Translations under genes and position numbers: made by a program
Assembly (NCBI GenBank): GCA_902774215.1
Contig: CACYHU010000058.1
Location: forward strand, 14,987-78,986
DNA length: 64,000 bases
Direction of reading: 5' to 3'
DNA from: an uncultured Chloroflexota bacterium
GTDB lineage: Bacteria > Chloroflexota > Anaerolineae > Anaerolineales > Anaerolineaceae
The notes under the pieces: generated by a model
Databases searched by the model: none
What the model was told of the DNA's origin: nothing
Seen by the model: the letters and a program-made list of their open reading frames with translations, nothing else
Shown here: positions 8,586 through 49,136 of the stretch, piece after piece
How positions within the stretch are numbered: the first letter of the stretch is position 1
Layout: each line of letters starts with the position of its first letter

Positions 8586-8611
8586 ATTATTTCTTCCTTT
8601 TGTTAAAAATC

Positions 8612-10072: not shown

Positions 10073-10088
10073 ATCTTCTTTCAATGAT

Positions 10089-33283: not shown

Positions 33284-34615
33284 TTATTCATTTTTCGGCA
33301 TTGCTTTGTTTACCAATCCCTGAATATCGAGCCCGACGCCTTCGGAGATTTGATTGACGGTAGTCATGACGTCCTTGACGAGACGGGTGCTGTTACCGTC
33401 GCCGTACATCGTGATGGAACCGACCTTATTGAGCGGATCGCTTGCAGCTTTGACGATATCCGGCAGGGCTGAGAGAATCATTTCGAGTTTCCCTGCCTCG
33501 TTCAATTTAGCCATCGCTGCCGCTTTCAATTCCAGCGCACGGGCTTCTGCGATGCCTATTGCTTCAATACCCTTTGCTTCTTCTTCCATGGCAATGCGTT
33601 TCGCTTCCGCAGCCTGTGCTTCCTCGTACTTCTTTGCCTCAGCTGCCTGTTCTGCTGCATAGCGCTCAGCTTCAGCTTTCTTTCGGATGTTGGCATCCAG
33701 TTCGCGTTCTTTGAGCTGGACTTCTTTCTCGCGAAGTTCGATCTCTTTTTCACGACGGGCAATGTCTGCTTCCACGCTTGCGGTTTCAATGGATCGGCGT
33801 TCTGCTTCTTCCTGAATCTTATAAGCGGCGTCAGCGGCTGCTCTTTTCTGGTCTTCTTCGATCTTGAACTGTGCCTGTCTGATGACAAGATCCTTGTTTT
33901 GTTCGGCAATACTGACCTGTGCGGCAACTTTCGCTTTGTTGCTCTGATCCGAAGCCTGAGCCTGGGCAATTGCTACATCACGTTCCGCATTTGCCTTCGA
34001 GATCGCGGCATCTTTACGGATTTGGCTGATATTTTCGATCCCGAGATCCGTGATGACGGAATTGTCATCGATGAAGTTCTGAATGGTCAGGTTGACCACT
34101 TCCAGACCCATTCGAGCCATTTCTTCTTGTACAGAGGATTGTACCTTCTGGGCGAAGATGTCACGTTTCTGGATCAATTCGCTGAGCTTCATCTGGCCGA
34201 TGATCTCACGCATGTTACCCTCAATGACCTGCTGGGCAACATAACCGATGTGGTCCGCGTCCTTGTTTAAAAAATTTTCTGCAGCCCGGACAACTGACTC
34301 CGGATTGGAGGCTACCTTTACATTTGCAACAGCATCCACATTGATGTTGATATATTCCGAAGTTGGGACTGATGAACTGGTCTTGATATCTACCTGAATC
34401 AAGTCCAGTGCAATTTCATCTACCCGTTCCAGGAACGGAATTCGAATGGTACTGCCGCCAATAACAACCCGCGGTTTTCCTGATGATTTCCGGAAACCGG
34501 AAATTATCAGCGCCTTGTTTGGCGGTGCCGTCAGGTAGGTTGATTTAAAGAATATTGCAATAGCCAACAGTAAAACAACACAAATTATCGGAATAATAAT
34601 ATTTGTAAACTCCAT
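33284..34615 (-). CDS. Flotillin-like SPFH protein (FloT/YqiK-like)
   Basis: N-terminal TM helix, SPFH domain, then a long EA-repeat coiled coil (AEAERYAAEQAAEAKKYEEAQAAEAKRIAMEEEAKGIEA). RBS AGAGGAAGG precedes the ATG. Confidence 0.8.
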   Translation of the reverse strand: MEFTNIIIPIICVVLLLAIAIFFKSTYLTAPPNKALIISGFRKSSGKPRVVIGGSTIRIPFLERVDEIALDLIQVDIKTSSSVPTSEYININVDAVANVKVASNPESVVRAAENFLNKDADHIGYVAQQVIEGNMREIIGQMKLSELIQKRDIFAQKVQSSVQEEMARMGLEVVNLTIQNFIDDNSVITDLGIENISQIRKDAAISKANAERDVAIAQAQASDQSNKAKVAAQVSIAEQNKDLVIRQAQFKIEEDQKRAAADAAYKIQEEAERRSIETASVEADIARREKEIELREKEVQLKERELDANIRKKAEAERYAAEQAAEAKKYEEAQAAEAKRIAMEEEAKGIEAIGIAEARALELKAAAMAKLNEAGKLEMILSALPDIVKAASDPLNKVGSITMYGDGNSTRLVKDVMTTVNQISEGVGLDIQGLVNKAMPKNE

Positions 34616-34787
34616 GACATACCTTCCTCTCTTTTACAAAATTCAGTTATTCAATGTTTCTATGATAACTGAGTGAGAAAAAACCTGCAAGGATGAAATA
34701 TACAAAATAAGATCGTTTATTTTGCCTTTCGATAAAAAAAAGTGCGGCTTTTCGTTGTATAATAAAAAAATATACTGCGGAGGCTGG

Positions 34788-36784: not shown

Positions 36785-36856
36785 TGCGGGGTAGAGCAGA
36801 GGCAGCTCGTCGGGCTCATAACCCGGAGGTCATTGGTTCGAATCCAATCCCCGCTA
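36785..36856 (+). tRNA. Initiator tRNA-fMet (anticodon CAU)
   Basis: TGCGGGGTAGAGCAGAGGCAGCTCGTCGGGCTCATAACCCGGAGGTCATTGGTTCGAATCCAATCCCCGCTA. The anticodon stem has three consecutive G:C pairs (GGG/CCC). Positions 1 and 72 form a U x U mismatch, the initiator hallmark. It closely resembles E. coli tRNA-fMet. Confidence 0.8.
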
Positions 36857-37158
36857 CTTTTTTTTGCCTGTTTTACGAGTGAATGGATCGGAAAACAGGC
36901 TTTTTTTACGGTTTCCACGATTTCGATATTTTATATTCCCTGTGTATGAAGTCCGGGTATTCAATACACATTTTCAAACGACAGGAAGAGGAGATCCGGG
37001 AGGCTTTGGTCAGCTGACGGTGATAAGATGTGAAGCGGGGCGGAATCCCGAATTACGTATTCCGAACTCCGCATTCTGAAGAATGGGTGCCGTGACCCCG
37101 ATTGACGGTTCCGCGTGCCGAACAGCGGCTGTGACGATGAGAGGCCGTCCGCGCACGC

Positions 37159-38823
37159 CTAACCGTCCTCCTGAATTTGTGCGAGGATTTTCCGCATTTG
37201 AGCTGCCTGGTCGGGATAGAAGGCGGCAAAGTCCGGGTCGCAGGCGAGGTAAATGATCTCTTCTTCGGTGAAGGTGATGGCTCCCTCTTCATTCGGACTG
37301 CTCCGATCGAAGGCATGCCGCAGGACCTCCAGATAGAAAGGTATATTAGGATCCGCGGTCATATGGTCCGGCGGATCATCCGGCGGCGGGTCTTCTACGT
37401 ATATTTGTTCTTCCGGAACAGGGTCAGGAATAGGAACCGTATCCGAAATTTCGGTTAATTGATCTGCTGCGTGTATATGTTCTTCCGGCATGGGATCAGG
37501 CTCCGGGTTTTCGGGCTGCCGCTCCTGACCGGGAACGGTATCCCCGCGTGCGGAGCGGCAGCGTGGGCGAAGCTCCCGCTCTGTATCTGAATCAGGCGAA
37601 GCCTGTACTTCTCGGAGCGGGTTTCGGACCGCCGACGGAGGAGGACTATCAGCGCTAAAGTTCGGCGTTAATTTTGAGGATCGATCTTCTTCCGGTAATT
37701 TACTTTCAGTGGTGGAGTTATCGGGAGAGCTGTTCTCCGCTTGTGCTTCCTCTGCAGGAGTGGTGTTTTCGGAAGAACTGATCTCCGGTTGTGATTCCTC
37801 TGTGGGAGCGGCGGTATCGGGAGAACTGATTTCCGCTTGTGATTCCTTTGCGGGAGTGGTGGTATTGGGGAGACTGATCTCTGGTTGTGATTCCTCTGCA
37901 GGGGTGGTGGTATTGGCGGGACGTACACAGCTGACCCGCTCGCGGTTCAGGCTGCATACGTCCCGGTGACCCGCTTGCGGGTCACCGCATACTTCGTTTG
38001 TTTCTTCCTTGCTTGATTTTTCAGAACTGATGGATTTCGAATTCCGAATTGCGTTTTTGCTCTTGCTTCCGCATTCGCGTGAGCCATCAAGGGCGGAAAG
38101 TGCGCGGGGCGCGGAAAAAGCGCCGGGTTCGAAGATCGCGGCGACATCGGGCAGCGGACGGCCGGAAACAGCGGAAATCATCGGTTTCCCCTGATCATCG
38201 TCGCTGAAAGGATCGGAAATCATCTGATTCCCCTGATCTCCGGCGCAGTTCGGGCGGCTGTTTCCGAGAGCTTCCGCATTCAATCTGACCACTGACCCCT
38301 GACTACTGACCGCTTTCTCAAGCTTGTCCTTCGTCTTATACAGCCTGAACAGCATATTCGTCCAGCTGAGCTGATTGATGAGCAGACGCTCGCTGATCTC
38401 CGGATGGGACTGAGCGGTCTGGATGACGCCGAGATAGCTCTTCCGGAAATGGTAGGAGGAAACGCTGATGAGGTCCCCGATCTGCATCGGGGCCTGAGCG
38501 AGATCCTCGCCCCGGTTGTGCAGGGCGACCAGTCCGCGGCCCATGGTCATGACGCCTTTCATCACTAATTTGGACAAATCTGTAAATTTCTTGGAAAAAT
38601 AGTTGGCTTTCTTTGCCTCGTCGATCCAGGTAATCAGGGAGTTATAGGCGAAGCCCATGATCTGGTGCGGGTCGACATCCTGTGAGACGAAGGGATCGAC
38701 GATATCGGTCGGCAGCGGAGCCCTGGCGAGGATCTCGCGTTCATGCGGCATCACCGCGCCGTTGTAAAGAGAATTCAGCGCGTTCTGGTACATCATGTTT
38801 TTTATCGCGGATCTGGTTGACAT
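37159..38823 (-). CDS. Hypothetical protein in a GC-rich segment, with a long Pro/Glu/Ser/Thr-rich repetitive linker
   Basis: 554 aa. Residues about 300-380 carry repeats of about 17 aa (NTTTPAEESQPEISSP...). Local GC is visibly higher than the neighbours. Confidence 0.5.
   Translation of the reverse strand: MSTRSAIKNMMYQNALNSLYNGAVMPHEREILARAPLPTDIVDPFVSQDVDPHQIMGFAYNSLITWIDEAKKANYFSKKFTDLSKLVMKGVMTMGRGLVALHNRGEDLAQAPMQIGDLISVSSYHFRKSYLGVIQTAQSHPEISERLLINQLSWTNMLFRLYKTKDKLEKAVSSQGSVVRLNAEALGNSRPNCAGDQGNQMISDPFSDDDQGKPMISAVSGRPLPDVAAIFEPGAFSAPRALSALDGSRECGSKSKNAIRNSKSISSEKSSKEETNEVCGDPQAGHRDVCSLNRERVSCVRPANTTTPAEESQPEISLPNTTTPAKESQAEISSPDTAAPTEESQPEISSSENTTPAEEAQAENSSPDNSTTESKLPEEDRSSKLTPNFSADSPPPSAVRNPLREVQASPDSDTERELRPRCRSARGDTVPGQERQPENPEPDPMPEEHIHAADQLTEISDTVPIPDPVPEEQIYVEDPPPDDPPDHMTADPNIPFYLEVLRHAFDRSSPNEEGAITFTEEEIIYLACDPDFAAFYPDQAAQMRKILAQIQEDG
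37690..37930. repeat. Imperfect tandem repeats of about 51 bp inside the hypothetical gene (they encode the P/E/S/T-rich units)
   Basis: Repeated ...ctgatytccgstgtgattcctctg.gggagtggtggtattgg... units. Confidence 0.6.
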
Positions 38824-39764: not shown

Positions 39765-39778
39765 AGGGGACGTTGAAG

Positions 39779-41551
39779 ATGGGTAAGTTTGTGATCGAAT
39801 GTCCGAGATGCGGAAAATTTACTGAGGCCTCAACCGGCTTCTTCGCCAAAAGGAAAATCATGTGTTCCTGTGGGTACACGATTGATGTTAGAACCGATAA
39901 AATGTCATCTCGTGTCTGTCAGCACTGCGGCAATACGGTGATTTTTGACCAGAGCAAAGGCGCTGATGCCCGATGCCCGGTTTGCGGCCAGCCGATCAAC
40001 ACGATGTCCGAGCAGTCAAAGATGGAAGAGATCTCCTGCGAACAATGCGGGGTCCGTTTTACCGTAAACAAAGCAGTTCCTACCTATGTCTGTCCTGTCT
40101 GCGACCATGTCAATGATGTTGCGGAAAGGGTCGCAAAGGAAAAGATCAGAAAAGACGGGCTCGCCAGCATCATCAAATATGAGGGCAGCGGAGATACACT
40201 GGTCTGGAAACACCCGATCGAGGATTTCAACTACGGTTCACAGCTCATCGTCCATGAAAGTCAGGAGGCTGTCTTTTACCGGGACGGTCAGGCACTGGAT
40301 CTTTTCGGTCCGGGACGCTATACGCTGGAAACACAGCAGCTGCCCATGCTTGAAAAGATCTACAAGCTGCCGACTGACACTGAAGGAACCTTCCATTCCG
40401 AAGTTTACTATATCAACCTTGCTACGGTCATGGGGATCAAATGGGGCACGGATTCCAAGGTCAGGATGTTTGATCCAAGCTCCGGAATGCATGTGGAACT
40501 CGGTGCCTGCGGGGAATTCAATATCCGTGTGATCAACTCCCGAAAGCTGCTTGCCAAACTCGTCGGGACGGGCGGCGTATTGAAACAGGAGCAGCTCATC
40601 GGGATGGGAGACGGCAAGGGATATTTTCGCGGAATGATCATGACCCAGGTCAAGAGTTATCTGGCTCAGGCGATCAAAGCTGCGAATATCAGCGTTCTCG
40701 AAATCGACGAGCGTCTGATGGATCTTTCCGCTGAACTGCGTAATCGGCTGAATAGTTTCCTTGCGGATTATGGCTTGGAAATGCCTGAATTCTTCGTCAC
40801 AAGAGTCATGACTCCTGATGATGATCCGAATTTCCGCCGAATGAAAGAACAGTATGCTCAGCAGTTTCTTCTCGTCCGTCAGGAACAGATACGCAAGCAG
40901 GAAGCGGAAGCTGCTGCCGCACGCAAGGAAGTTGAGGCTGCGACAGCTGCGCGCATGAAAATAATTGGTGCTCAGGGAGATGCGGAAGCCCTTCGGGCGA
41001 AGGCACAGGCGGAAGCTGACGCCTACCGTATGCAGGCGGAAGCTGAAGCGCTCGAAATGAAGATGAAAGGTTATACATACCAGCAAGAAACAGCACGCCA
41101 GGTTGGTATGGAAGCAATGAAGAATGGTATCTCCGGCGGAGCAGGCGCGGGTGCGCTGGGTGACCTCGCCGGGTTGGGAATCAGTCTTGGTGCGATGGGC
41201 AGCGTGATCGGCATGACAAAAGATGCCTTGCAGCCTGCGGCTGAAACCGCGAAAGGTCTTGGTCAAATGGTCGGTGCCTCTATCACAGATAACGCCGGTT
41301 GGGACTGCGAATGCGGACAGAAAGGAAATACAGGAAACTTCTGTATGAACTGCGGCGCAAGAAAACCTCAGCAGAAGGCTGCTTCAGACACCTGGAATTG
41401 TGAATGCGGTGCGAAGGGCAACACCGGAAAATTCTGTCCGAATTGTGGCGCAAAACGTCCAGAAATCAATACCGGATGGGATTGCAGCTGCGGTCAGAAG
41501 AACAACACAGGAAAGTTCTGCGCTAATTGTGGAAAGAAACGGGAGGAATAA
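39779..41551 (+). CDS. Zinc-ribbon / SPFH (band-7) / zinc-ribbon fusion protein
   Basis: The N-terminus has three CxxC...CxxC ribbons (CPRCG..CSCG; CQHCG..CPVCG; CEQCG..CPVCD). An SPFH core follows (…YINLATVMGIKWGTDSKVRMFDP…), then an EA-rich coiled coil and a Gly-rich segment. The C-terminus carries three repeats of WDCxCGxKxNTGxFCxNCGxKR. Confidence 0.7.
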   Translation: MGKFVIECPRCGKFTEASTGFFAKRKIMCSCGYTIDVRTDKMSSRVCQHCGNTVIFDQSKGADARCPVCGQPINTMSEQSKMEEISCEQCGVRFTVNKAVPTYVCPVCDHVNDVAERVAKEKIRKDGLASIIKYEGSGDTLVWKHPIEDFNYGSQLIVHESQEAVFYRDGQALDLFGPGRYTLETQQLPMLEKIYKLPTDTEGTFHSEVYYINLATVMGIKWGTDSKVRMFDPSSGMHVELGACGEFNIRVINSRKLLAKLVGTGGVLKQEQLIGMGDGKGYFRGMIMTQVKSYLAQAIKAANISVLEIDERLMDLSAELRNRLNSFLADYGLEMPEFFVTRVMTPDDDPNFRRMKEQYAQQFLLVRQEQIRKQEAEAAAARKEVEAATAARMKIIGAQGDAEALRAKAQAEADAYRMQAEAEALEMKMKGYTYQQETARQVGMEAMKNGISGGAGAGALGDLAGLGISLGAMGSVIGMTKDALQPAAETAKGLGQMVGASITDNAGWDCECGQKGNTGNFCMNCGARKPQQKAASDTWNCECGAKGNTGKFCPNCGAKRPEINTGWDCSCGQKNNTGKFCANCGKKREE

Positions 41552-41554
41552 GTC

Positions 41555-42241
41555 ATGAAAAGCCAATTACGGATCGGTATCATTTTATTGATAGTATTGG
41601 CTGTATTTACGGTGATTGCCTTTGCTGTACCGTTTGAACATACAGCTGTTTTCTGGATTTCCTATGCCATGGGAGTTTTCGCTCTGCTGGTATTGGGTGT
41701 TGTCCTTTTGTCCATGTTTGGAAAAGAAACAACGGTCAGAAGCAAATTCTACAGATTCCCGATCACCCGAATCGCCTGGTGTTATGGAGCGACACAATTG
41801 ATTCTGAGCCTGATCTTTATGATCTTCTCAGCGAAGATACCGGTTTGGATTCCTGTGATTGTTTATGTTGTTTTATTCGCTGTTGCGGCGATTGGTTTAA
41901 TTAGCGCGGATGCCATGCGCGATGAGATTGTCCGTCAGGATGCAAAACTGAAAACTGATATTTCCTGCATGACAACGCTGCGCTCTATCGTTTATCCATT
42001 GGCGGATCAATGTCCTGATCTAAACGCAAAAAAGGCACTGCAAAAACTGGCTGAGGATTTTCGTTATAGTGATCCTGTCAGCAGCGAAGCTCTGAAACCG
42101 GTCGAAAATGAACTTGAGGACCTTGTTTCCGAGCTCCAGAATGCTGTCAGCAGCGGAAACATTACTCAGGTCGCTGCGCTTTGCAGTAAGATCAGTACAG
42201 TTCTGACAGAACGGAATCGACTGTGTAAATTGAACAAATAA
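41555..42241 (+). CDS. 4-TM membrane protein with a cytoplasmic helical C-terminal domain
   Basis: Its start lies 3 nt after the upstream stop. Four hydrophobic helices in the first 120 aa. No known motif. Confidence 0.55.
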   Translation: MKSQLRIGIILLIVLAVFTVIAFAVPFEHTAVFWISYAMGVFALLVLGVVLLSMFGKETTVRSKFYRFPITRIAWCYGATQLILSLIFMIFSAKIPVWIPVIVYVVLFAVAAIGLISADAMRDEIVRQDAKLKTDISCMTTLRSIVYPLADQCPDLNAKKALQKLAEDFRYSDPVSSEALKPVENELEDLVSELQNAVSSGNITQVAALCSKISTVLTERNRLCKLNK

Positions 42242-42255
42242 CTCCGGGAGGAATT

Positions 42256-44127
42256 ATGGCGATATTTCGATGCAAAATGTGTGGCGGAGATTTGGAAATT
42301 CAGGATGGGGCGACTTCCTGTGTATGTGAGTTCTGCGGGACACGGCAGACGCTGCCGACCAATCAGGATGAAAACCTGCAGGGACTGTTTAATCGGGCGA
42401 ATGTGCTGCGGATAAAGTCCGAATTTGACAAGGCCGCGGATATTTATGAAAAGATCCTGCAGGCGGACCAGACCGAAGCGGAAGCCTATTGGGGACTGAT
42501 CCTCTGCAAATACGGCATCGAATATGTCGAAGATCCCGCGACTTACAAACGGATACCGACCTGCCACCGGGCATCCTATGACGCTGTGACGACTGATGAA
42601 GACTACAAAAACGCACTGAAATATGCCGATGCCGTCCAGCGGGAGATCTATGAAACCGAAGCGGCGAAGATCGAAGAGATTCAGAGAGGTATCCTTGCAA
42701 TTGCACAAAAGGAATCTCCATATGATGTCTTCATCTGCTACAAAGAAACTGATGACAGCGGAAACCGAACACAGGACAGCGTGATCGCCAATGACATTTA
42801 CTATCAGCTGAAGAATGAGGGTTTCAAGGTCTTTTATGCCGCGATCTCCCTGGAAGACAAACTCGGCTCGGAATATGAACCGGTAATCTTTTCAGCGCTG
42901 AATACCGCAAAGGTTATGCTGGTGCTGGGTACAAAGCCGGAATATTTCAATGCCGTGTGGGTAAAAAACGAGTGGTCCCGCTTTCTGAAGATCATGAAAA
43001 AGGATCGAACCCGCTTGATGATCCCCTGTTACAAAGATATGGATCCATATGAACTTCCGGAAGAATTCGCTCATCTGCAGGCTCAAAATATGGGGAAGAT
43101 CGGTTTTATTAATGACTTGGTTCGCGGAATAAAGAAGGTTATCGGAAACGACCAGCCCCAGCAGGCAGCTGCACCCATGCCTGTTACTGCGGCAACTCCG
43201 GTTCATACAAGCAATGTGAACGCACTTTTGAAACGTGGAAACATGGCTCTTGAAGATGGCGAATGGGAAAAGGCCGATGATTTCTTCGAACAGGTTCTGA
43301 ACCAGGATGCAGAATGTGCGGAGGCTTATTGGGGAAAATATCTCGCTGCAAATCATCAACATAATGCAGAAGCTTTATACTCTTCATTGACTAACCAATA
43401 TAAAGAAGTTGCCTTTGTAAAAAAAGAGGCTTTTCCGCCTAATACCGCATATATTGAAAATGCTGTAAAGAATTTTGGTAAGGTTGGTATTTATTCCGAA
43501 GAGAAAATAAGAAGATATTATCAAAATTTTGACAGATATTTCGATTCGGAAATGGAAATAAGAAAAAAGCAGAAGGCAGAATTGATTCAGGCTACAGAGA
43601 CGGATAAATTATTTATTCGTGCGCAGCAATACGCCAAAGGAAATACAAAAGAAGCTATTGATCAATTTCTTGATTCGATCAATCGGGCCATGGATTCCAA
43701 AATACAGGAGGCTACGAATAGCGATGCTCAAAAGATTGCTGATAAGGTTGCAGCTTACCAGCAATATCTATCAGAAACAGATTCAAGATTATATAACGAA
43801 ATTAAGAAACTTTGGGATGAGAATGAACCTGAATATCAAAGGCTCCTTCAAGAATTTAATAACGCAAATACCGAAATTAAATTTATATCCTTACAAACAG
43901 ATTTTCAAAGACTTGGGGAATATAAAGATTCCAAAGTGCTTGCTCAGAGATGTTGGTCAGAATACTTAAAACTTCAGAAACAATTCTTGCAGGAGCAAGA
44001 ACAGCAAATGAAAAATAAAAACAAAGAAGAAGCACAAAAGAAAGAAAAAATATTCAAATTATCAATTATTTTAATTGTTATTGTACTTTTAGGAATTATA
44101 GTAGGGCTGATTATCACGTCCAAATAA
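42256..44127 (+). CDS. TIR-domain protein 1 (Zn-ribbon, TPR-like region, TIR, divergent helical C-terminal region, C-terminal TM anchor)
   Basis: N-terminal zinc ribbon MAIFRCKMCGGDL...CEFCG. TIR signatures YDVFICYKETDD ... AVWVKNEWSRF (S..W...E, the catalytic-Glu motif). C-terminal TM helix LSIILIVIVLLGIIVGLII. RBS GGGAGG precedes the start. Confidence 0.75.
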   Translation: MAIFRCKMCGGDLEIQDGATSCVCEFCGTRQTLPTNQDENLQGLFNRANVLRIKSEFDKAADIYEKILQADQTEAEAYWGLILCKYGIEYVEDPATYKRIPTCHRASYDAVTTDEDYKNALKYADAVQREIYETEAAKIEEIQRGILAIAQKESPYDVFICYKETDDSGNRTQDSVIANDIYYQLKNEGFKVFYAAISLEDKLGSEYEPVIFSALNTAKVMLVLGTKPEYFNAVWVKNEWSRFLKIMKKDRTRLMIPCYKDMDPYELPEEFAHLQAQNMGKIGFINDLVRGIKKVIGNDQPQQAAAPMPVTAATPVHTSNVNALLKRGNMALEDGEWEKADDFFEQVLNQDAECAEAYWGKYLAANHQHNAEALYSSLTNQYKEVAFVKKEAFPPNTAYIENAVKNFGKVGIYSEEKIRRYYQNFDRYFDSEMEIRKKQKAELIQATETDKLFIRAQQYAKGNTKEAIDQFLDSINRAMDSKIQEATNSDAQKIADKVAAYQQYLSETDSRLYNEIKKLWDENEPEYQRLLQEFNNANTEIKFISLQTDFQRLGEYKDSKVLAQRCWSEYLKLQKQFLQEQEQQMKNKNKEEAQKKEKIFKLSIILIVIVLLGIIVGLIITSK

Positions 44128-44244
44128 AAAATATTCTTTGTATGATGAGTAGCGCATCTTACTCCGAAGCTTTAGTATAAGTGATGTTGGAAACAGATAA
44201 TAATGAAATGTTGAAGATTATTTCAGGATAGTTAAGAGGATATT

Positions 44245-46065
44245 ATGGCGATGTATCGATGCAAGATGTGCGGCGGAGACCTGAAAATTCAGGACGGGGC
44301 GACCTCCTGTGTATGTGAATTCTGTGGGACGCAGCAGACGCTTCCGACCAATCAGAATGAGAATCTCCAGGGACTGTTTAATCGGGCGAATGTGTTGCGG
44401 ATAAAGTCCGAATTTGACAAGGCCGCGGATATTTATGAGAAGATCCTGCAGGAGGACCAGACCGAAGCGGAAGCTTACTGGGGACTGATCCTCTGCAAAT
44501 ACGGCATCGAATATGTTGAAGATCCAGCCATCTATAAGCGCATCCCGACCTGCCACCGGGCGTCCTATGAGGCGGTGACCACCGATGAAGACTACAAAAA
44601 CGCGCTGAAATATGCCGACGCGGTCCAGCGGGAGATCTATGAGACCGATGCGGCGAAGATCGAAGAGATCCAGAAGGGCATCATTGCCATTTCTCAAAAG
44701 GAATCACCCTATGATGTCTTCATCTGCTACAAAGAGACCGACAACAGCGGGAACCGAACCCAGGACAGCGTGATCGCCAATGATATTTACTACCAGCTGA
44801 AGAATGAAGGATTCAAGGTATTTTACGCAGCGATATCGCTTGAAGATAAGCTTGGCTTGGAATATGAACCGGTGATCTTTTCTGCGCTGAATACCGCGAA
44901 GGTGATGCTGGTCCTGGGAACAAAACCGGAATATTTCAATGCGGTCTGGGTGAAAAACGAATGGTCCCGCTTCCTGAAGATCATGAAAAAGGACCGTACC
45001 CGCTTGATGATCCCCTGTTACAAAGACATGGATCTCTATGAGCTTCCCGAAGAATTTGCTCATCTGCAGGCACAGAACATGGAGAAAATCGGCTTCATCA
45101 ACGATCTTGTCCGCGGCATAAAGAAAGTTATCAGAAAGGATCAGCCCCAGCCGGCAGTAAAGCCTATGCCTGTTGCCGCAGCAGCTCCGGTTTATACAAG
45201 CAACGTAAACGCGCTCTTGAAACGCGGAAACATGGCTCTGGAAGATGGCGAATGGGAAAAAGCCGATGATTTCTTCGAACAGGTTTTGAACCAAGATGCA
45301 GAATGTGCGCAAGCTTATTTTGGAAAATTTTTAGCTGCTAATAAACAACCTGGTCGCAATGTAATGATTGATCCTTTGATTGATAATTTTTGTGGAGATA
45401 TTGAGAAAGAAACCGTGGAAGCTTTTCCTCTTGATGAAGATCATATTCAGAAAATTATTCATAAATTTTCTATTCCCGAGTACCTTCCCGAAAAGACAAT
45501 AATTGATTATTATCATTTTTCCAGTCATTACCAATCAGAAGTAAAGTATCTTAAAGAACAGAGATTTCAATTATTGACTTATCTTGCTGCAGATAAATTC
45601 CTGATTCGAGCAAAAAAATATGCGAATGAAAAGGAAAAAGAACTTTTTAAAAACTGGATGAATTCTGTAGAAAATGCCATGGATCATCGTATCATTCAAG
45701 CGCTGGAAGAAGATCAGCAAAAAGAAGAAGAATTGAAAAAAAGTTATGTTTTTTTTCTTAAAGAAAAAGATTATCAGATTCAAAAACTTTGGCAGCAGGC
45801 ATCCATAAAGCGTGAACAAGACTATCAAAAAATAATCAGAGATATGAGGTCAGCAGGCTCTAAAGGAAGTTCATTAAAGAGTGATTTGTATAGAGCAAAA
45901 ATGAATTTCAGTACTCCCGGCATGAAAGACTATAAGGAAGCTGCAAAATATGCTGAATTATGCAAAATACAAATAAGCCGTTTTGAATCTTATGAACGAA
46001 GAAAAATCGAAGAATCCAAAATAGAAAATCAGTTATCAGAAGAAATACGGCATCGATTCCACTGA
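44245..46065 (+). CDS. TIR-domain protein 2 (paralog of TIR-1, no C-terminal TM)
   Basis: Same Zn-ribbon/TPR/TIR module as TIR-1, about 90% identical at nucleotide level for the first 1.1 kb. The C-terminal third is unrelated and AT-rich. Confidence 0.75.
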   Translation: MAMYRCKMCGGDLKIQDGATSCVCEFCGTQQTLPTNQNENLQGLFNRANVLRIKSEFDKAADIYEKILQEDQTEAEAYWGLILCKYGIEYVEDPAIYKRIPTCHRASYEAVTTDEDYKNALKYADAVQREIYETDAAKIEEIQKGIIAISQKESPYDVFICYKETDNSGNRTQDSVIANDIYYQLKNEGFKVFYAAISLEDKLGLEYEPVIFSALNTAKVMLVLGTKPEYFNAVWVKNEWSRFLKIMKKDRTRLMIPCYKDMDLYELPEEFAHLQAQNMEKIGFINDLVRGIKKVIRKDQPQPAVKPMPVAAAAPVYTSNVNALLKRGNMALEDGEWEKADDFFEQVLNQDAECAQAYFGKFLAANKQPGRNVMIDPLIDNFCGDIEKETVEAFPLDEDHIQKIIHKFSIPEYLPEKTIIDYYHFSSHYQSEVKYLKEQRFQLLTYLAADKFLIRAKKYANEKEKELFKNWMNSVENAMDHRIIQALEEDQQKEEELKKSYVFFLKEKDYQIQKLWQQASIKREQDYQKIIRDMRSAGSKGSSLKSDLYRAKMNFSTPGMKDYKEAAKYAELCKIQISRFESYERRKIEESKIENQLSEEIRHRFH

Positions 46066-46098
46066 CATAAAATGTTTAGGAAAAAACAAAAATCATTA

Positions 46099-46236
46099 AT
46101 AGATAGCTTCCATAAAACCATTCCATTCAGAAAAATCACATTGTCTATATTGGTTATTTCCAATAGCTACAACAGTGCCATCTGATTTCAACCCAACTTT
46201 ATAAATCTTCCGGTAGGAACAATTATCTAAGCGAGG
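46099..46236 (-). pseudogene. Orphan fragment of an RCC1-like repeat protein
   Basis: Minus-strand frame PRLDNCSYRKIYKVGLKSDGTVVAIGNNQYRQCDFSEWNGFMEAIY* (46 codons between stops, no start) matches the RCC1/ATS1-type repeat consensus (...GLKSDGTVVAVG.N.YGQCDVS.W...). Confidence 0.45.
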
Positions 46237-46361
46237 TTATTGGTAAAGTTTGGAAATTAATTAAGAAATTTTTACAAACAGGAGCAAAGATTTCTTAATA
46301 ATTAACAATATCAGCTTTATTTACAAACCTGAATATGGAAATATCATAAGACTGCGTAAAA

Positions 46362-47297
46362 TCAGCCGGATGCCCGATTTGCCATTTTCTTACGAGTGTC
46401 GGTGATGGCGGCCTGATAAAAGGCTTTGTAGCCGGGTTTGCCGTCGGGAGTGGTTTTTTCGGTATCGGAGAAACCCATGTCGAGGACTTCCACGTCCATG
46501 AGTTTGAGCAATTCGGTCTTTTCCCGCTGTTTTTCGGAGCGGAGCTCGTAGAAATATACTCTGCCGTGTTCGGCGCGTTCCCGCTGTTTTCGGTTCAGCA
46601 GCCACCAGAGGTCGACTTCGGACAGGCCGAAACCGAAGCCGAGAACATAGACATCGCCCAGGATGAAGGAATCCATCCAGCTGTTCAGTTCGATCAGTTT
46701 TCCCTCTTTCTGATTGCGGGCATAACGATCTTTATTCTTTTCCGATTCCTCGATGATCTTATAGAGCAGCTTCCCGTACCAGTAGTGGCCGAGGATCATG
46801 CTGTCGGTTTTGCGGATCTCACCGTGAACATGCCAGATACGGTTTTCCGTATTCCCGCACTTTACCTGATTATAGGTGTGCAGCAGGTAATTCCTTTCCG
46901 GGTTTTTTGAAGTGTACCGCATGAGTTTTGCGACCTGTTGGTCTGTGAGTTCATATTTCCCGAGAGCCGCTTCTTCCAGTTCATAGCTGTAATTCGTCGT
47001 AAGGATATCATCAAATCCCATGGTCAGAAGGTCCCGCAGGACTTCCATCTGCCGGTCGTTCCGGATCTTCCCCCTGAAATCCTCCTTTGCTGATTTCAGA
47101 GATGTCCGGATCTGGTTGTCCGATGCAAGGATCGCCTGCAGCGGCATCGGCATTTCGGATCTCGACCAGTCAAAGTCATTCCGTTTCGCGATCTTCCCGA
47201 TCAGATCCGCCCATGAGATACCGCTGTACGCCAGATTGAGCCCGTTGCCGAGAAACAAAATTTGTGGAATTGTAAAATTATTACATATATTTACCAT
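46362..47297 (-). CDS. Standalone SIR2-family protein (SIR2_2 / ThsA-type sirtuin-like NADase domain, no SLOG or other sensor domain)
   Basis: LFLGNGLNLA (GxG), ILTTNYSYELE (TTNYD-like, catalytic Asn), IWHVHGE (HxHG, catalytic His) and VLGFGFGLSEVDLWW. The ATG at 47297 lies 6 nt after the TIR-3 stop and has no SD of its own, suggesting translational coupling. Confidence 0.7.
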   Translation of the reverse strand: MVNICNNFTIPQILFLGNGLNLAYSGISWADLIGKIAKRNDFDWSRSEMPMPLQAILASDNQIRTSLKSAKEDFRGKIRNDRQMEVLRDLLTMGFDDILTTNYSYELEEAALGKYELTDQQVAKLMRYTSKNPERNYLLHTYNQVKCGNTENRIWHVHGEIRKTDSMILGHYWYGKLLYKIIEESEKNKDRYARNQKEGKLIELNSWMDSFILGDVYVLGFGFGLSEVDLWWLLNRKQRERAEHGRVYFYELRSEKQREKTELLKLMDVEVLDMGFSDTEKTTPDGKPGYKAFYQAAITDTRKKMANRASG

Positions 47298-47303
47298 ATA
47301 TTT

Positions 47304-49136
47304 TTATTTTTTAGAATTGATAGCAATGAGTAAAATCAAACTCATTATCAGAATTACAACCAAAAGGATAATAGTTTCTCTTGTCTTTTTTGTTTTTTCT
47401 TGTTGTTCAAGACGTCTTTGTTCTTCTTGATATATTTCTTTTTTCCTTTTGTGTAATTCATCTATTCTTTTGCTAATATCTTTATATCCCGTCCCGATTT
47501 TTTCGAATAAAAAAATAGCTGTATCACAGGCACTAATAGTTTCTGCTTTATCTGCTTGTGAACATGCTAATTGAAAATAATTTTCTCGTTTTTGAAATGT
47601 TGCTTGATAAAGCTGATTTGCTTTTTCATATGAATCAAAAAATTCTTGAGAATACTCCTCATTTATCCTTTTGAAATTTTCATCATCCTTGCTTCGTTCA
47701 TTTTCCAAGTGTAATTGCCAATTCGTTAGTATTCTTTTTTTTGCTTTGATTATGAAATCATTATTATTAGCGAATCGAATGGCACGATTAAAATATTTAT
47801 TTCTATTAAGTTTTTCAGTTTCGTTTTCTATTATTTGTGATATAGAAGCCGTTTCGCTTGAAAATGATTTCTCGTTTTGATTGAAAAGTTTTCGGATTGT
47901 TTTGCTATCTAAATAATTTTCTATCGTAAATTTCTCGGCAACAAGATCAACATCTTTCATGTTACGGGGAACAGTAATCTGTTGAATTTTACTGTTTTTT
48001 ATGAGGTTTTGCGATTTCCCTATCAGTTCCTCTATATTTTTGCATTGATAAAATGCTAATAATTTTCCAATGTAAGCATCTGAAGATTCAGGATCGATAT
48101 CCAATGCCTTGTCAAAATAAATATCTGCGGTAGAAAAGTCCCCGTCCTGTAATTCAATGTTTCCGCGCTTGAGAAACGAATTTATATTTGTTTGTTCTGA
48201 AATTTCTTGAACAAATTTTCCTTCTTTTTCTTCATGAGGTTTCAATTCAAGCACTTTGGTGATTCCGCGGATCAGGTCCTGGATAAAGCCGATGCGGCTC
48301 ATGTCGTAACTCTGCAGGATGGAAAGCTGTTCCGGCATGTCGTAGGGATCCATGTCGCGGTAGCAGGGGATCAGCAGCCGGCTGCGGTCATTTTTCATGA
48401 GGGCGAGGTAGCGGCTCCATTCGTTCTTCACCCAGACCGCGTTCATATATTCGGGACGAGTCCCGATGACGATCATAACTTTGGAAGAATGCAGGGCGGT
48501 AAAGATATAGGGCTCATACTGCTGCCCGGGTTTGTCTTCGAGGGTGATGCGGGAGAAAAAGACACGGTATCCCTGATCAGTCAGGCGGTAATAGATGTCC
48601 TGCGCCAGGGTGCTGTCGAGGGTACGCTGTCCGCGGTCATCGCTTTCCTTGTAGCAGATGAAAACATCGAAGGGAGCTTCTTTGTTGACGGTTTCGATGA
48701 TGTTCCGCTGGACTTCGGCGATAACTCTGCCGTCGTGCTCATACTGTTCCCGTGCGATCGGATCAGCGTTAGCGACAGCTGCCTGATAGTCTACGTCCTC
48801 CAGAAAGTTCGTGAAAGAAGCCCGGTGGCAGGTCGGGATATATTTTCCGCTGGCGGGATCCTTGACATATTCGATGCCGTACCGCGAAAGCGCCGCGCAC
48901 CAGTGTGCTTCGGCATCGGTATCATCTTCGGCGATGATGCGTTCATAGACGCTGAGCGCCTTGTCGAATTCGCTGATCCTGCGGAAATGGTCCCCGCGGT
49001 TGAAGGCGGCCGCCCGCTGTTCATCATTGATCTTAGGCAGTGTCTGCCTGGTGCCGCAATACTCGCAAACCGCGACGGTCGTCCCGTCAGCGATATTCAA
49101 ATCCCCGCCGCAAATTTTACACCGAATAATCGTCAT
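47304..49136 (-). CDS. TIR-domain protein 3 (paralog of TIR-1 and TIR-2; Zn-ribbon, TPR-like region, TIR, divergent C-terminal region, C-terminal TM anchor)
   Basis: MTIIRCKICGGDL...CEYCG. TIR motifs FDVFICYKESDD ... AVWVKNEWSRY. C-terminal TM helix IILLVVILIMSLILLIAI. RBS GGAGAAGAA. Confidence 0.75.
   Translation of the reverse strand: MTIIRCKICGGDLNIADGTTVAVCEYCGTRQTLPKINDEQRAAAFNRGDHFRRISEFDKALSVYERIIAEDDTDAEAHWCAALSRYGIEYVKDPASGKYIPTCHRASFTNFLEDVDYQAAVANADPIAREQYEHDGRVIAEVQRNIIETVNKEAPFDVFICYKESDDRGQRTLDSTLAQDIYYRLTDQGYRVFFSRITLEDKPGQQYEPYIFTALHSSKVMIVIGTRPEYMNAVWVKNEWSRYLALMKNDRSRLLIPCYRDMDPYDMPEQLSILQSYDMSRIGFIQDLIRGITKVLELKPHEEKEGKFVQEISEQTNINSFLKRGNIELQDGDFSTADIYFDKALDIDPESSDAYIGKLLAFYQCKNIEELIGKSQNLIKNSKIQQITVPRNMKDVDLVAEKFTIENYLDSKTIRKLFNQNEKSFSSETASISQIIENETEKLNRNKYFNRAIRFANNNDFIIKAKKRILTNWQLHLENERSKDDENFKRINEEYSQEFFDSYEKANQLYQATFQKRENYFQLACSQADKAETISACDTAIFLFEKIGTGYKDISKRIDELHKRKKEIYQEEQRRLEQQEKTKKTRETIILLVVILIMSLILLIAINSKK

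Follow-up and report, generated by a model that had tools for sequence, protein, structure and literature searches.

How did neighboring genes come to share a well-conserved, GC-rich 5' part and yet continue into AT-rich 3' parts that hardly resemble each other? We addressed this question in a window of 64,000 nt on contig CACYHU010000058.1 (GCA_902774215.1) of an uncultured Chloroflexota bacterium of the Anaerolineaceae; all positions count within this window. The three open reading frames named in the original prediction were present, i.e., T1 (TIR-1, 42256-44127) and T2 (TIR-2, 44245-46065) on the plus strand and T3 (TIR-3, 47304-49136) on the minus strand. All three encode a TIR_2 domain (41.9, 38.1, and 50.8 bits, respectively, at a Pfam cut-off of 28). 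The conserved N-terminal module is here named head and the variable C-terminal cassette tail; the heads of T1 and T2 are referred to as class A and that of T3 as class B.

The locus opens with a plus-strand gene for an SPFH/Band_7_1 protein that carries Zn-ribbon repeats at its N and C termini (39773-41551; Pfam Band_7_1, E = 5e-38; homologues begin at the ATG at 39779), the first gene of a conserved neighborhood of SPFH, four-helix membrane protein, and TIR genes. It is followed after 4 nt by a gene for a 228-amino-acid membrane protein with about four predicted hydrophobic helices and a helical tail (41555-42241, plus strand), which ends 14 nt ahead of T1, matched nothing in Pfam, NCBIfam, or PADLOC, and bears no family name. 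The T1 head (42256-43339, plus strand) comprises a Zn-ribbon, TPR-like helices, the TIR domain (42727-43089), a disordered linker, and a TPR ending in the motif AYxGK. Based on the change point described below, an AF2 model, and a hydrophobic segment, the AT-rich T1 tail (T1c, 43340-44127, plus strand) is predicted to form a helical stalk with a C-terminal membrane anchor (residues 602 to 620, 44059-44115), with 3 residues past it. In T2, a head with 87.5% DNA and about 94% protein identity to that of T1 (44245-45328, plus strand) is joined to an AT-rich tail that lacks a membrane anchor (T2c, 45329-46065, plus strand). The T3 head, with Zn-ribbon, TPR, and TIR domain (48251-49136, TIR at 48297-48665, minus strand), shows 57% protein identity to class A heads, and its AT-rich tail (47304-48250, minus strand) harbors a predicted membrane anchor at residues 588 to 606 (47319-47375).

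In a codon alignment of T1 and T2, the best single change point was found at nucleotide 1085 of T1, which is codon 362 and corresponds to 43340 in T1 and 45329 in T2 (2-lnL support interval 43330-43363; 2ΔlnL = 278). Nucleotide identity is 0.875 to the left of this point and 0.515 to the right, and amino acid identity falls from about 94 to 95% to about 30% (24 to 38%). The original prediction of about 90% DNA identity over the first 1.1 kb is thus close to the value measured up to nucleotide 1085, and the predicted sharp end of similarity was found at codon 362 instead of about codon 365. The GC content changes at nearly the same places, from 0.487 to 0.323 at 43335 in T1 and from 0.498 to 0.318 at 45315 in T2, in agreement with the predicted step from about 50% to about 30%; the profile showed a sharp change coincident with the identity break and not uniform divergence. 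T3 has the same split, as expected, but with its boundary at 48250 (codon 296; GC 0.552 to 0.296) and not at about 48200. Compared to T1 and T2, the T3 protein is split about 65 codons closer to its N terminus, so the T3 tail takes in the linker and the second TPR.

The GC3 values of head and tail are 0.55 and about 0.27 in T1, 0.63 and 0.23 in T2, and about 0.70 to 0.71 and 0.22 in T3. Since the genes of the window have a GC3 of 0.46 ± 0.08, the heads exceed the mean by 1 to 3 SD and the tails fall short of it by about 2.5 SD. The GC3 change-point statistic was 52, 100, and 150 for T1, T2, and T3, compared to 0.6 to 26.6 for 22 other genes of the window. Together with their relatives in the loci L001 and L004, the genes drop in GC3 at codon ~296 (T3, L4gA), ~338 (L1g1), or ~357 (T1, T2, L1g2, L4gB), with a gradual course in L1g3, and the drop of each gene coincides with its own similarity breakpoint.

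We compared the window with eight related loci of rumen Anaerolineaceae, all on metagenome contigs; for contigs from a single sample, such as L004, a chimeric join inside the conserved head is possible. The 23 genes of these nine loci carry 13 tail types, i.e., further C-terminal variants occur on the same N-terminal module. Among 127 same-class gene pairs, head identity (0.86 to 1.0) and tail identity (mostly 0.2 to 0.4, in 102 pairs; at least 0.5 in 13 pairs) are uncorrelated (r = 0.01). The genes L1g2 and L4gB have orthologous heads (100% amino acid identity; dS 0.27, flanking genes 0.22), but L1g2 carries a T1-type tail and L4gB a T2-type tail, and these tails are 27% identical. In T1 and L1g2, which share the same tail, dS is 0.55 in head and tail alike, and dN rises from 0.005 in the head to 0.169 in the tail; in five other pairs with a head dN of 0.005 to 0.009 and a head dS of 0.27 to 0.70, tail dN amounts to 0.66 to 0.76. 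At one syntenic site the array varies in size (1+1, 2+1, or 2+2 genes), and truncated and split genes were also seen. The missing correlation, the exchanged tails of L1g2 and L4gB, and a GC boundary that tracks the breakpoint support the predicted replacement of C termini, i.e., that recombination joined heads to tails of different history.

The suggestion that this followed a recent tandem duplication did not hold. The dS between the heads of T1 and T2 is 0.69, similar to that of flanking genes between genomes (0.69 to 0.79 for the SPFH and membrane protein genes of this genome and its relatives), and the same relatives already possess both tail types. The homology of T1 and T2 extends only from 3 nt upstream of the ATG, where direct repeat D1 begins in either gene, to codon 362; the shared block is therefore the head module and does not amount to duplication of an entire gene together with flanking DNA.

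Taken as a whole, these data are best explained by reassortment of heads and tails in a receptor-like TIR family, a reading we regard as likely. The head of about 1.1 kb is under extreme purifying selection; each locus has several copies of it and all related strains possess it, by which it would become a portable homology block. Three processes may use this block to reassort, delete, and duplicate tails, namely unequal crossing-over of tandem heads, gene conversion over short tracts among heads, and homologous exchange between strains, and this would unlink the histories of heads and tails. The junction would mark the end of homology, either after the nearly invariant AYxGK (codon ~361) or, alternatively, at the end of the TIR domain ahead of the disordered linker (codon ~296). 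A larger ancestral array that lost different members by nothing but unequal crossing-over could have left the same patterns. The heads themselves are mosaic: runs of informative sites alternate between T1-like and T2-like, 58 to 60% of the pairs of informative sites are incompatible in the four-gamete test, a PHI permutation test on six genes gave p = 0.025, and dS along the T1/L1g2 head ranges from 0.2 to 1.0.

The T1 and T2 tails could also have diverged in situ after a duplication, by relaxed or diversifying selection and without recombination. Tails indeed evolve about 30-fold faster than heads in protein, even in the orthologous pair T1/L1g2, family-wide paralogue pairs show 57 to 74% identity in the head and 22 to 40% in the tail, and dS between tails of 30% identity is unreliable because such alignments are poor. 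However, with an omega of about 0.3 and the head dS of 0.27 to 0.70, a tail dN of 0.08 to 0.2 is expected and 0.66 to 0.83 was observed; tail identity does not follow head identity, the two tail types on the orthologous heads of L1g2 and L4gB both occur in the window genome as well, and GC and similarity boundaries move together from gene to gene. We thus consider purely local divergence unlikely. Fusion of unrelated sequences by a metagenome assembler via the repeated head comes to mind since the heads are repeats of 88 to 99% identity and all data stem from metagenome assemblies, but there is hardly any chance that it accounts for the locus: the arrangement of the window recurs at 100% identity over 11.4 kb in an independent contig (L086), the T1-to-T2 junction is shared by a second strain (L085, 91.6% identity), the arrangement of L001 recurs in contigs of at least three samples, open reading frames stay open across every junction, and the same mosaic is found in 9 loci.

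A conserved GC-rich part followed by GC-poor variable ends has been described for Rhs proteins (bioRxiv 10.1101/2025.05.08.652813), and polymorphic toxins of the Rhs/CdiA type, in which a delivery part carries exchangeable toxin ends, each with its immunity gene, would also match the sharp junction right after a short conserved motif, the hypervariable GC-poor C termini, and the tandem and truncated copies. This candidate is very improbable, being contradicted by the domain content: the head is preceded by no signal peptide or secretion domain and starts with a Zn-ribbon, the tails contain no Pfam toxin domain but one common fold of TPR, helical stalk, and transmembrane segment, an immunity gene downstream of them is absent, the only enzyme-like domain (TIR) sits in the constant part, the 117-nt gap between T1 and T2 holds no immunity-sized reading frame, and a search of the rest of the window turned up no orphan tails. 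The original analogy to polymorphic toxins therefore applies to the evolutionary mechanics but not to the content, and that to sensor diversification in defense proteins fits better. Just as remote as an assembly artefact is hypermutation targeted by a diversity-generating retroelement (DGR) or another local mutator as the source of the variable half. The DUF6273 ectodomains of relatives have a C-type-lectin-like fold (PMC10743442), which is commonly targeted by DGRs (PMC10743442; bioRxiv 10.1101/2024.10.15.618418), and lectin sensors diversified by DGRs have been described in conflict proteins with a TIR domain (PMC10907252). On the other hand, T1, T2, and T3 have no lectin domain, the reading frames scanned from 27.8 to 57 kb include no reverse transcriptase, and no template/variable repeat pair was detected in 39 to 50.5 kb. 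Differences include indels and span the whole 250-amino-acid domain, not just adenine-templated positions, and the equal dS of head and tail in the orthologous pair (0.55 each) indicates that the local mutation rate is not raised.

In the favored reading, the tails are discrete, old, slowly diverging types, 13 on 23 genes. T1c has an orthologue in L1g2 (gene 2 of L001, P0001; 70% protein identity, dS 0.55, omega 0.31), which, unlike T1c, runs on into a DUF6273 ectodomain; T2c has one in gene B of L004 (L4gB; 61% protein identity), and the T3 tail one in P0265/L092 (82%). Eight other proteins have heads 92 to 97% identical to that of T3 and tails only 35 to 40% identical. As DNA the tails are unalignable, as stated originally, but as proteins they can be aligned and share about 12 nearly invariant residues family-wide, among them R455 and A460 of the faint motif IRAxxYA, which had been noticed in the tails before. 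AF2 modeled residues 318 to 623 of T1 with a pLDDT of about 96 (96.2; alignment of relatives with tails ~30% identical), and omega along the tail ranges from 0.08 to 0.53, never above 1. The tails thus keep one confidently predicted fold of TPR, helical stalk, and membrane anchor under selection, which suggests that they are alternative versions of the same stalk/sensor module and not random sequence. Past the TGA of T2, a degenerate stretch of KK, hydrophobic segment, and YNSA follows in frame, as in relatives (P0007, P0112, P0009), and of the 47 tblastn alignments with an end outside T1 to T3 (40 of them listed), about 38 cross the stop to ~46143-46197; 46066-46185 (plus strand) is therefore likely a relic of an earlier 3' end of T2.

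Why the tails are AT-rich is a separate question. Flexible, horizontally exchanged DNA is generally AT-richer than core DNA. The tails appear to behave like such a pool, with the heads seemingly at the composition of local conserved genes; other variable accessory genes of the locus are AT-rich and the conserved AbiH-like gene is GC-rich. We found no tail donor; used as a query on its own, the T1 tail matched only 3 proteins, all apparently of this lineage, and import from an AT-rich pool is therefore proposed here as a hypothesis. Flanking genes are at substitutional equilibrium near GC3 0.55, and along the branches of T1 and L085, third positions of tails changed 12 times from AT to GC and 5 times from GC to AT (a small count of 17 events, with parsimony biased in that direction), which fits a slow drift to the host value. 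That orthologous tails still have a GC3 of 0.22 to 0.27 after a dS of about 0.55 is difficult to reconcile with amelioration as fast as in flanking genes. Also, head GC3 varies from 0.36 to 0.70 among relatives at an SPFH GC3 of 0.52 to 0.59 (excluding one partial gene at 0.69), so the heads are not simply host-like.

AT-richness may instead have arisen in place, which is compatible with tail reassortment and for which we see a substantial chance, albeit below even. Heads would be held GC-rich by GC-biased gene conversion among copies, codon selection, or both, and tails, lacking a recombination partner and being weakly constrained, would sit at an AT-biased mutational equilibrium. This agrees with the persistently low GC3 of orthologous tails, and all 13 tail types and the ectodomains are AT-rich (GC3 mostly 0.19 to 0.41), with values that are stable across relatives differing in head GC3. 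Family-wide, tail GC3 averages 0.13 under the head (a difference above 0.1 in 46 of 71 loci), both follow host GC (r ~0.82), the highest head GC3 tends to occur in loci with several same-class copies, and the L085 branch head shows 26 GC-to-AT versus 4 AT-to-GC changes. However, the link to copy number is confounded with phylogeny, and T3 has the highest head GC3 (~0.70) as a single-copy class B gene. Tail GC (0.32) and GC3 (0.24) also lie below intergenic DNA of the window (0.38), and the few polarized tail changes favor a flank-like process over equal flux (likelihood ratio ~3.7, binomial).

T1 to T3 belong to a very large, uncharacterized family that no PADLOC or NCBIfam model covers and that, clustered at 50% identity, falls into at least 4,199 clusters. 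Residues 1 to 360 are always taken up by the head, in proteins of 436 to 1786 amino acids. The TIR fold of the T1 head matches AbTir (7uxu, TM 0.73), and its E239, invariant across 79 relatives, corresponds in the alignment to the catalytic residue of chain 7uxr and flax L6, the Glu of their W..E motif; relative to its orthologue, the T1 head has an omega of 0.01. A TM-like segment was found in 213 of 256 relatives (median start at residue 596 among these), with at least 100 amino acids past it in 165 of 187 single-segment relatives; the ectodomain of most relatives comprises about 260 amino acids and is often a DUF6273 domain (67 of the best 120 matches listed). The predicted topology is a cytoplasmic head, a helical stalk, and a single membrane span, with an extracellular domain in most relatives; the short forms T1, T2, and T3 represent a minority state without it. 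Judged entirely by domain content and topology, they are probably receptor-like conflict or defense proteins, in which the variable stalk and ectodomain might confer specificity of recognition or pairing, with an NAD-consuming or signaling output from the constant TIR head.

At the membrane, these proteins probably work together with the SPFH and four-helix proteins, which are encoded nearby on the same strand. Of the 84 fetched loci (window excluded), 58 have an SPFH homologue that shares the strand of the TIR gene and is no more than 6 kb away from it, and 50 have a homologue of the four-helix protein; the four-helix gene ends at most 400 nt upstream of a same-strand TIR gene in 26 of 81 non-redundant loci. 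In L001 and L004, which are syntenic, the SPFH protein shows 94% identity, and tandem arrays are present in 29 of 85 loci. Located 7 nt downstream of T3, a lineage-specific minus-strand gene (46362-47297, GC3 0.64) encodes an AbiH/SIR2_2-like protein of 311 amino acids (Pfam AbiH 36 bits, cut-off 30.9; SIR2_2 25.6 bits, cut-off 24.5) with weak PADLOC matches only, to LmuA and ThsA. Among the first 84 loci it was found only in L004, plus a 30-amino-acid relic in L001 and L002, and it is also annotated beside a class B gene in L087 and L090 to L092.

Analysis of the TIR locus revealed three open reading frames, T1 (42256-44127, forward strand, 623 amino acids), T2 (44245-46065, forward strand, 606 amino acids), and T3 (47304-49136, reverse strand, 610 amino acids), which are paralogues and in each of which TPR-like Pfam matches flank a TIR_2 domain. 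Using a likelihood approach on the codon alignment of T1 and T2, a change point in identity was located at nucleotide 1085 of T1 (codon 362), i.e., at window positions 43340 in T1 (support interval, 43330-43363) and 45329 in T2. Nucleotide identity drops there from 0.875 to 0.515 (2ΔlnL = 278) and protein identity from ~95% to 24-38%. The GC breaks of T1 (43335) and T2 (45315) coincide with this position, and that of T3 is found at 48250 (codon 296), ~65 codons earlier in the protein. GC content at third codon positions (GC3) decreases from the conserved N-terminal part (here named head) to the C-terminal part (tail) from 0.55 to 0.27 in T1, from 0.63 to 0.23 in T2, and from 0.71 to 0.22 in T3, with change-point statistics of 52, 100, and 150, respectively; for 22 further window genes, this statistic is 0.6-26.6. 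Compared to the mean GC3 of the window genes (0.46 ± 0.08), heads are above and tails ~2.5 standard deviations below, and tails are lower in GC than heads at all three codon positions. These identity and GC change points confirm, far beyond chance, the predicted sharp split of the TIR genes into a GC-rich and an AT-rich part, and the breakpoint check proposed for T1 and T2 yielded a single sharp change. An assembly artifact as the source of the arrangement was ruled out by a contig with 100% identity to the window over 11.4 kb (L086) and by a second strain (L085; 91.6% identity), in which the T1-to-T2 junction has the identical arrangement.

A 246-kb contig encodes exact copies of the T1 and T3 proteins together with a T2 that is identical except for a start two codons later. 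The neighboring SPFH protein clusters at ≥90% identity with proteins named Flexilinea sp. or Anaerolineaceae MAGs. For comparison, eight related loci (L001, L004, and L087 to L092) were retrieved. In all that reach far enough, the SPFH gene and a gene for a 228-amino-acid membrane protein come first, followed by TIR genes with T1/T2-type heads (class A, forward strand), an AbiH-like or other accessory gene, and TIR genes with T3-type heads (class B, reverse strand), at class A plus class B copy numbers of 1+1, 2+1, or 2+2. Nei-Gojobori estimates for the flanking SPFH and membrane protein genes are dN 0.043 and dS 0.79 between the window genome and L001, dN 0.041 and dS 0.69 between the window genome and L004, and dN 0.011 and dS 0.22 between L001 and L004. 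T1 and the second TIR gene of L001 (L1g2), which have the same tail type, differ by a dS of 0.55 in head and tail alike, with a dN of 0.005 in the head (ω = 0.01) and 0.169 in the tail (ω = 0.31); head and tail of this pair have one single history. Five further pairs show a head dN of 0.005-0.009 and a head dS of 0.27-0.70, yet a tail dN of 0.66-0.76.

The clearest case of differing head and tail histories is the pair of L1g2 and L4gB, each the second gene of its locus in two closely related genomes (L001 and L004). Their heads are 100% identical in protein sequence (dN 0.005; dS 0.27), a divergence that matches the flanks. Their tails are 27% identical (dN 0.75; dS saturated), with a T1-type tail in L1g2 and a T2-type tail in L4gB, and both types are also present in the window genome. 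Across the lineage, 23 genes in nine loci carry 13 tail types (threshold, ≥50% identity). Head identity in 127 same-class pairs from these nine loci is 0.86-1.0, while 102 of the pairs have a tail identity of 0.2-0.4 and 13 one of ≥0.5, and head and tail identity are uncorrelated (r = 0.01). Class B behaves likewise: eight database proteins have heads 92-97% and tails 35-40% identical to those of T3, and the database protein P0265 has a tail 82% identical to the T3 tail. The lack of correlation and the swapped tails of L1g2 and L4gB support the predicted replacement of tails by recombination. In contrast, the data do not support the assumption that the tandem duplication is recent, as the heads of T1 and T2 (dN 0.025, dS 0.69; tails, dN 0.71, dS saturated) are synonymously as diverged as the genomes compared.

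The GC3 drop is located at codon ~296 in T3 and L4gA (gene A of L004), at ~338 in L1g1, and at ~357 in T1, T2, L1g2, and L4gB, and it is gradual in L1g3 (L1g1 and L1g3 being genes 1 and 3 of L001). Since the drop shifts together with each gene's own similarity breakpoint, composition belongs to the joined piece and not to a position in the protein. Two junction sites are favored, one at the end of the TIR domain, right before the sole disordered stretch (residues 299-317), and one right after the nearly invariant residues A357, Y358, G360, and K361 (AYxGK motif). The T1/T2 homology block begins 3 nt before the ATG and thus comprises exactly the head and not a duplicated gene with its flanks. 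Furthermore, the heads are mosaics themselves, with runs of informative sites alternating between T1-like and T2-like; 58-60% of informative site pairs are incompatible, and the PHI test gave modest support, with P values of 0.025 (six genes) and 0.059 (five genes), with incompatibility near saturation even between neighboring sites. Along the T1/L1g2 head, dS ranges from 0.2 to 1.0. We infer that three processes reassort the tails: tandem heads undergo unequal crossing-over, heads convert one another, and strains exchange DNA. Together, these processes would also account for differences in copy number and for the presence of decayed copies.

When the T2 frame is read past its TGA, a degenerate membrane-anchor relic extends to ~46185, which makes T2 look like a shortened derivative from which membrane anchor and ectodomain have been lost. 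At 46066-46185, within the AT-rich gap at 46066-46361, this frame encodes KK, a hydrophobic segment, and YNSA, a remnant resembling relatives. Gene decay recurs in these TIR arrays: the class B gene of L089 is split into two open reading frames (7424-8878 and 9031-10431, both reverse strand) corresponding to a head and to a tail, the latter matching the L087 class B protein at residues 516-1032, and L001 retains a 30-amino-acid AbiH relic. Using 129 tails as tblastn queries, no orphan or silent cassette was found in the window outside T1 to T3 except the read-through of the T2 stop. Scans of the locus with Rfam and for tandem repeats, promoters and terminators, and other repeats found nothing that accounts for the mosaic; the sole repeat at the locus is the head itself.

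Less certain is where the AT-richness of the tails comes from. A separate, AT-rich flexible gene pool would fit the observation that substitution in the flanking genes is in equilibrium near GC3 0.55, the window's own branch included, and that tails are AT-richer than intergenic DNA of the window (GC 0.32 versus 0.38). Other variable accessory genes of these loci are AT-rich as well, whereas the conserved AbiH-like gene is GC-rich. Polarized third-position changes in the T1 tail also point toward GC (12 versus 5), a count of only 17 events that is prone to parsimony bias. However, a search of 5.8 billion proteins with the T1 tail alone returned three matches, all apparently from this lineage, so that no AT-rich donor was identified, and orthologous tails remained at GC3 0.22-0.27 through a dS of 0.55. 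The latter argues for a compositional equilibrium reached in place, which we consider possible, if somewhat improbable. Such an equilibrium is also in line with the finding that 13 of 13 tail types are AT-rich although head GC3 spans 0.36 to 0.70 among relatives, and with a family-wide tail GC3 that averages 0.13 below that of the head, both tracking host GC.

The window lineage is the extreme case (regression residual, -0.24; z, about -2 to -3.4). The wide range of head GC3 (L088, L089, and L087 versus the window, L001, L004, and L092) occurs among heads that are 90-99% identical in protein sequence, while SPFH GC3 in those loci is 0.52-0.59 (0.69 in one partial gene); head composition therefore shifts fast and independently of the flanks. 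A relation between copy number and head GC3 was rejected as conclusive evidence for biased gene conversion, as it is confounded with phylogeny and contradicted by T3. Besides the TIR genes, just one gene of the window is strongly AT-rich (31424-32971, forward strand; GC 0.31, GC3 0.29); it encodes a GtrII-type glucosyltransferase and is probably horizontally acquired surface-modification DNA.

The AlphaFold2 model of T1 (mean pLDDT, 89) comprises a Zn ribbon, TPR-like helices, the TIR domain, a disordered linker, and a TPR in the head. In the tail, it shows a small α/β unit, a 75-residue helix, a short helix (amino acids 540-552), and a long helix running into a C-terminal hydrophobic segment. 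Modeled alone, the T1 tail reaches a pLDDT of 96.2 although its relatives are ~30% identical, so the "hypervariable" tail is predicted to be one conserved fold with variable surfaces. In agreement with a single conserved fold, sliding-window ω along the orthologous tails of T1 and L1g2 is 0.08-0.53 and thus never >1, and no positive selection was seen in this pair. No solved structure is related to the part of the tail that follows the TPR. The TIR_2 domain (PF13676) scores 41.9, 38.1, and 50.8 bits in T1, T2, and T3, respectively (gathering cutoff, 28), and is modeled in T1 with a flavodoxin-like TIR fold (pLDDT, 86-96), for which Foldseek retrieved AbTir (7uxu; probability 1.00, TM 0.73) and also MyD88 and TIRAP. 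Residue E239 (WVKNEW) is invariant in 79 relatives, and its counterparts in the alignment are the Glu of WTEYE (chain 7uxr) and that of WCLMEL (flax L6), the catalytic residues of these proteins. By this alignment, the TIR head has a conserved, putatively catalytic Glu of the type needed for NAD+ cleavage.

The mosaic TIR genes belong to a large family without a described function. Clustering at 50% identity (E ≤ 1e-30) gave at least 4,199 clusters, mostly from gut and rumen anaerobes (Clostridia and Anaerolineaceae). Heads always span residues 1-360, and total lengths range from 436 to 1786 amino acids. Among 256 relatives of ≥520 amino acids, 187 have exactly one transmembrane-like segment and 26 more than one; the single segment starts at a median of residue 596 and is followed by ≥100 residues in 165 of the 187. 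DUF6273, a C-type-lectin-like domain (PMC10743442; bioRxiv 10.1101/2024.10.15.618418), is present in 67 of the best 120 family hits (counted by hand from precomputed Pfam lists), and class B relatives mostly carry RCC1/WD40-like propellers. T1 and T3 stop right after the anchor and T2 has none, and all three represent short forms, which are a minority in the family; in L001, the orthologue of T1 keeps its ectodomain.

We defined an SPFH-4TM-TIR neighborhood, which is not a named system, as an SPFH/Band_7_1 gene and a gene for a multipass membrane protein of ~228 amino acids on the same strand, adjoining at least one head-carrying TIR gene. The window has this arrangement, with gaps of 4 nt between the SPFH gene and the four-helix membrane protein (4TM) gene and 14 nt between the latter and T1. 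In the 84 fetched loci besides the window, an SPFH/Band_7_1 gene is found near the TIR gene on the same strand in 58 and the 228-amino-acid membrane protein gene in 50. The strictly colinear triad is present in 19 of 81 non-redundant loci, and tandem arrays of two to four TIR genes in 29 of 85. PADLOC and NCBIfam have no model or name for the TIR, SPFH, or membrane protein, and no account of this system was found in the literature on SPFH proteins with TIR domains or with antiphage defense. The SPFH protein (39773-41551, forward strand) has Zn-ribbon motifs at its N terminus, as at the start of the TIR heads, and three near-identical GWDCxCGxKxNTGxFCxNCG repeats at its C terminus.

In evolutionary mechanics, Rhs/CdiA polymorphic toxins are the closest match. 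In Rhs genes, a motif demarcates the conserved GC-rich part from a variable tip that is poor in GC (bioRxiv 10.1101/2025.05.08.652813). Rhs/CdiA proteins and T1 to T3 share a long conserved GC-rich N-terminal part and a GC-poor hypervariable C-terminal part exchanged by recombination, with PxxxxDPxGL or VENN as the junction motif in the former and AYxGK in the latter; in both, tandem copies and truncated ones are found at a hotspot of rearrangement. The sharp junction to a GC-poor part is likewise present in the TIR genes (GC3 from 0.55-0.71 to 0.22-0.27, with the break at codon 362). Unlike in Rhs/CdiA, the constant part is predicted to be cytoplasmic and bears an enzyme-type TIR domain. Instead of a toxin, the variable part comprises a stalk of conserved structure, a membrane anchor, and, in relatives, an ectodomain. 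YD repeats, a secretion signal, an immunity gene, and, in the window, orphan tips are lacking. No N-terminal secretion or trafficking domain was found, as the N terminus is a CxxC...CxxC Zn ribbon, Pfam gives just TPR and TIR, and none of the 256 relatives has a hydrophobic segment in its first 400 residues. The tails contain no toxin domain by Pfam, and no immunity gene lies downstream, where 117 nt separate T1 and T2, a 296-nt relic follows T2, and the conserved AbiH-like gene follows T3. The analogy to polymorphic-toxin cassettes thus holds for the evolutionary mechanics but fails for the secretion domain, toxin domain, and immunity gene, all of which are missing.

As in Thoeris (TIR sensor ThsB and SIR2 effector ThsA), several divergent TIR copies are present per locus, a SIR2-like gene adjoins T3, and the variable non-TIR part may plausibly be a sensor. 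ThsA is a SIR2 or transmembrane effector with a SLOG/Macro signal-binding domain. That neighbor, an AbiH/SIR2_2-like gene downstream of T3 (46362-47297, 311 amino acids), is confined to this lineage and absent from most family loci. It matches ThsA weakly (E = 6.9e-4, 16 bits, residues 14-122) and AbiH and LmuA better, and it has no Pfam domains other than AbiH and SIR2_2. T1, T2, and T3 match no PADLOC family, ThsB included, at E ≤ 0.01. The locus thus fails to match Thoeris in either component. Also unlike Thoeris, the TIR proteins are ~600-1000 amino acids long and membrane anchored, with SPFH and four-helix membrane proteins as partners.

Conflict systems with hypervariable lectin sensors fused to effectors are known as diversity-generating retroelement (DGR)-diversified STAND or ternary systems (PMC10907252, PMC7159879). 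They resemble the TIR family in linking a constant effector or signaling module to a fast-diversifying recognition module, and they have TIR among their effector domains; C-type-lectin-like domains (DUF6273) are present in many TIR family members. In contrast to these systems, the TIR family lacks an NTPase and a reverse transcriptase, has the topology of a single-pass membrane receptor, and owes its diversity to discrete old cassettes that are reassorted and not to templated hypermutation. Moreover, the TIR family is found in gut and rumen Clostridia and Anaerolineaceae and not in cyanobacteria or other multicellular bacteria. Targeting by a DGR is not supported, as no reverse transcriptase domain was found in the open reading frames scanned at 27.8-57 kb and no template/variable repeat pair at 39-50.5 kb, and head and tail dS are equal. 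A site-specific shufflon or invertible cassette system would be characterized by a recombinase gene and by short inverted repeats on both sides of the variable segments. No recombinase was found among the neighboring open reading frames, and inverted repeats are confined to stretches of 65 nt, 80% matching, from the class A and class B heads themselves.

In topology only, the family resembles Toll-like receptors, in which a single membrane span likewise separates a TIR domain in the cytoplasm from a variable recognition domain outside the cell, and a sequence comparison of the T1 TIR domain with the PDB gave a Toll-like receptor TIR domain as best match (7ylf; E = 1e-4). In the TIR family, however, the TIR domain is N-terminal and the orientation reversed, the window genes have no ectodomain, and ectodomains are lectin-like, RCC1-propeller, or LysM instead of LRR; this likeness is not meant to imply common descent of the architecture.

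Judged from their sequences, the TIR proteins are probably receptor-like conflict proteins with the head as output and stalk and ectodomain conferring specificity. A bolder and rather doubtful proposal is that the SPFH-4TM-TIR module is an undescribed, widespread membrane-receptor immune or conflict system of bacteria whose cassettes are reshuffled via the head. In such a system, a constant cytoplasmic TIR head would be wired to interchangeable stalk and ectodomain cassettes and would double as the recombination handle. Populations would share a repertoire of receptor specificities reshuffled by homologous recombination, and the cassettes would form a gene pool that circulates separately, as marked by the extreme GC3 contrast inside single genes. 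If this is true, a strongly conserved enzymatic module is itself the handle by which recognition modules are reassorted, the reverse of Rhs/CdiA, whose variable part is the weapon. The family, with its predicted receptor-like topology of cytoplasmic TIR, one membrane span, and lectin-like or propeller ectodomain, has conserved gene partners, yet it is missed by current defense-system catalogues. The locus provides natural sets of identical heads with different tails, with which the stimulus sensed by a bacterial TIR protein and the path of a signal from the membrane to the TIR domain could be tested directly. Furthermore, a GC3 shift of 0.4 within ~30 nt inside one open reading frame makes the locus useful for studying causes of base composition, i.e., gene-pool origin, biased gene conversion, and selection.

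Additional features were observed around the locus. A tRNA-Met gene (36785-36857, forward strand) lies just upstream of the GC3-rich gene block at ~37.1-51.5 kb that holds the TIR locus and may be a genomic-island boundary. The context upstream of the locus differs in L001, L087, and L088. The gene at 37159-38823 (reverse strand) has an unusually high GC content of 0.55 and four copies of a 48-nt tandem repeat at 37719-37914; it encodes a Pro/Ser/Glu/Thr-rich protein of 554 amino acids with no Pfam match and no homologue in related loci. A few kilobases upstream of the locus, a second SPFH/Band_7 gene of a different type (33284-34615, reverse strand) and a gene for a BspA-type leucine-rich-repeat surface protein (34722-36683, forward strand) are found. 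In L001 (1-2424, reverse strand) and L004 (1-32, reverse strand), a Pkinase/NB-ARC (STAND-type) gene for 1033 amino acids, absent from the window, lies upstream of the SPFH operon, which suggests a broader conflict-gene neighborhood. Variable, mostly AT-rich genes without a Pfam match directly follow long-form tails in four loci (L001, 13037-14053; L089, 6290-7360; L004, 9432-9971; L088, 12653-13537) and could be cassette-linked partner genes; the respective proteins of L001 (338 amino acids) and L089 (356 amino acids) are 78% identical.
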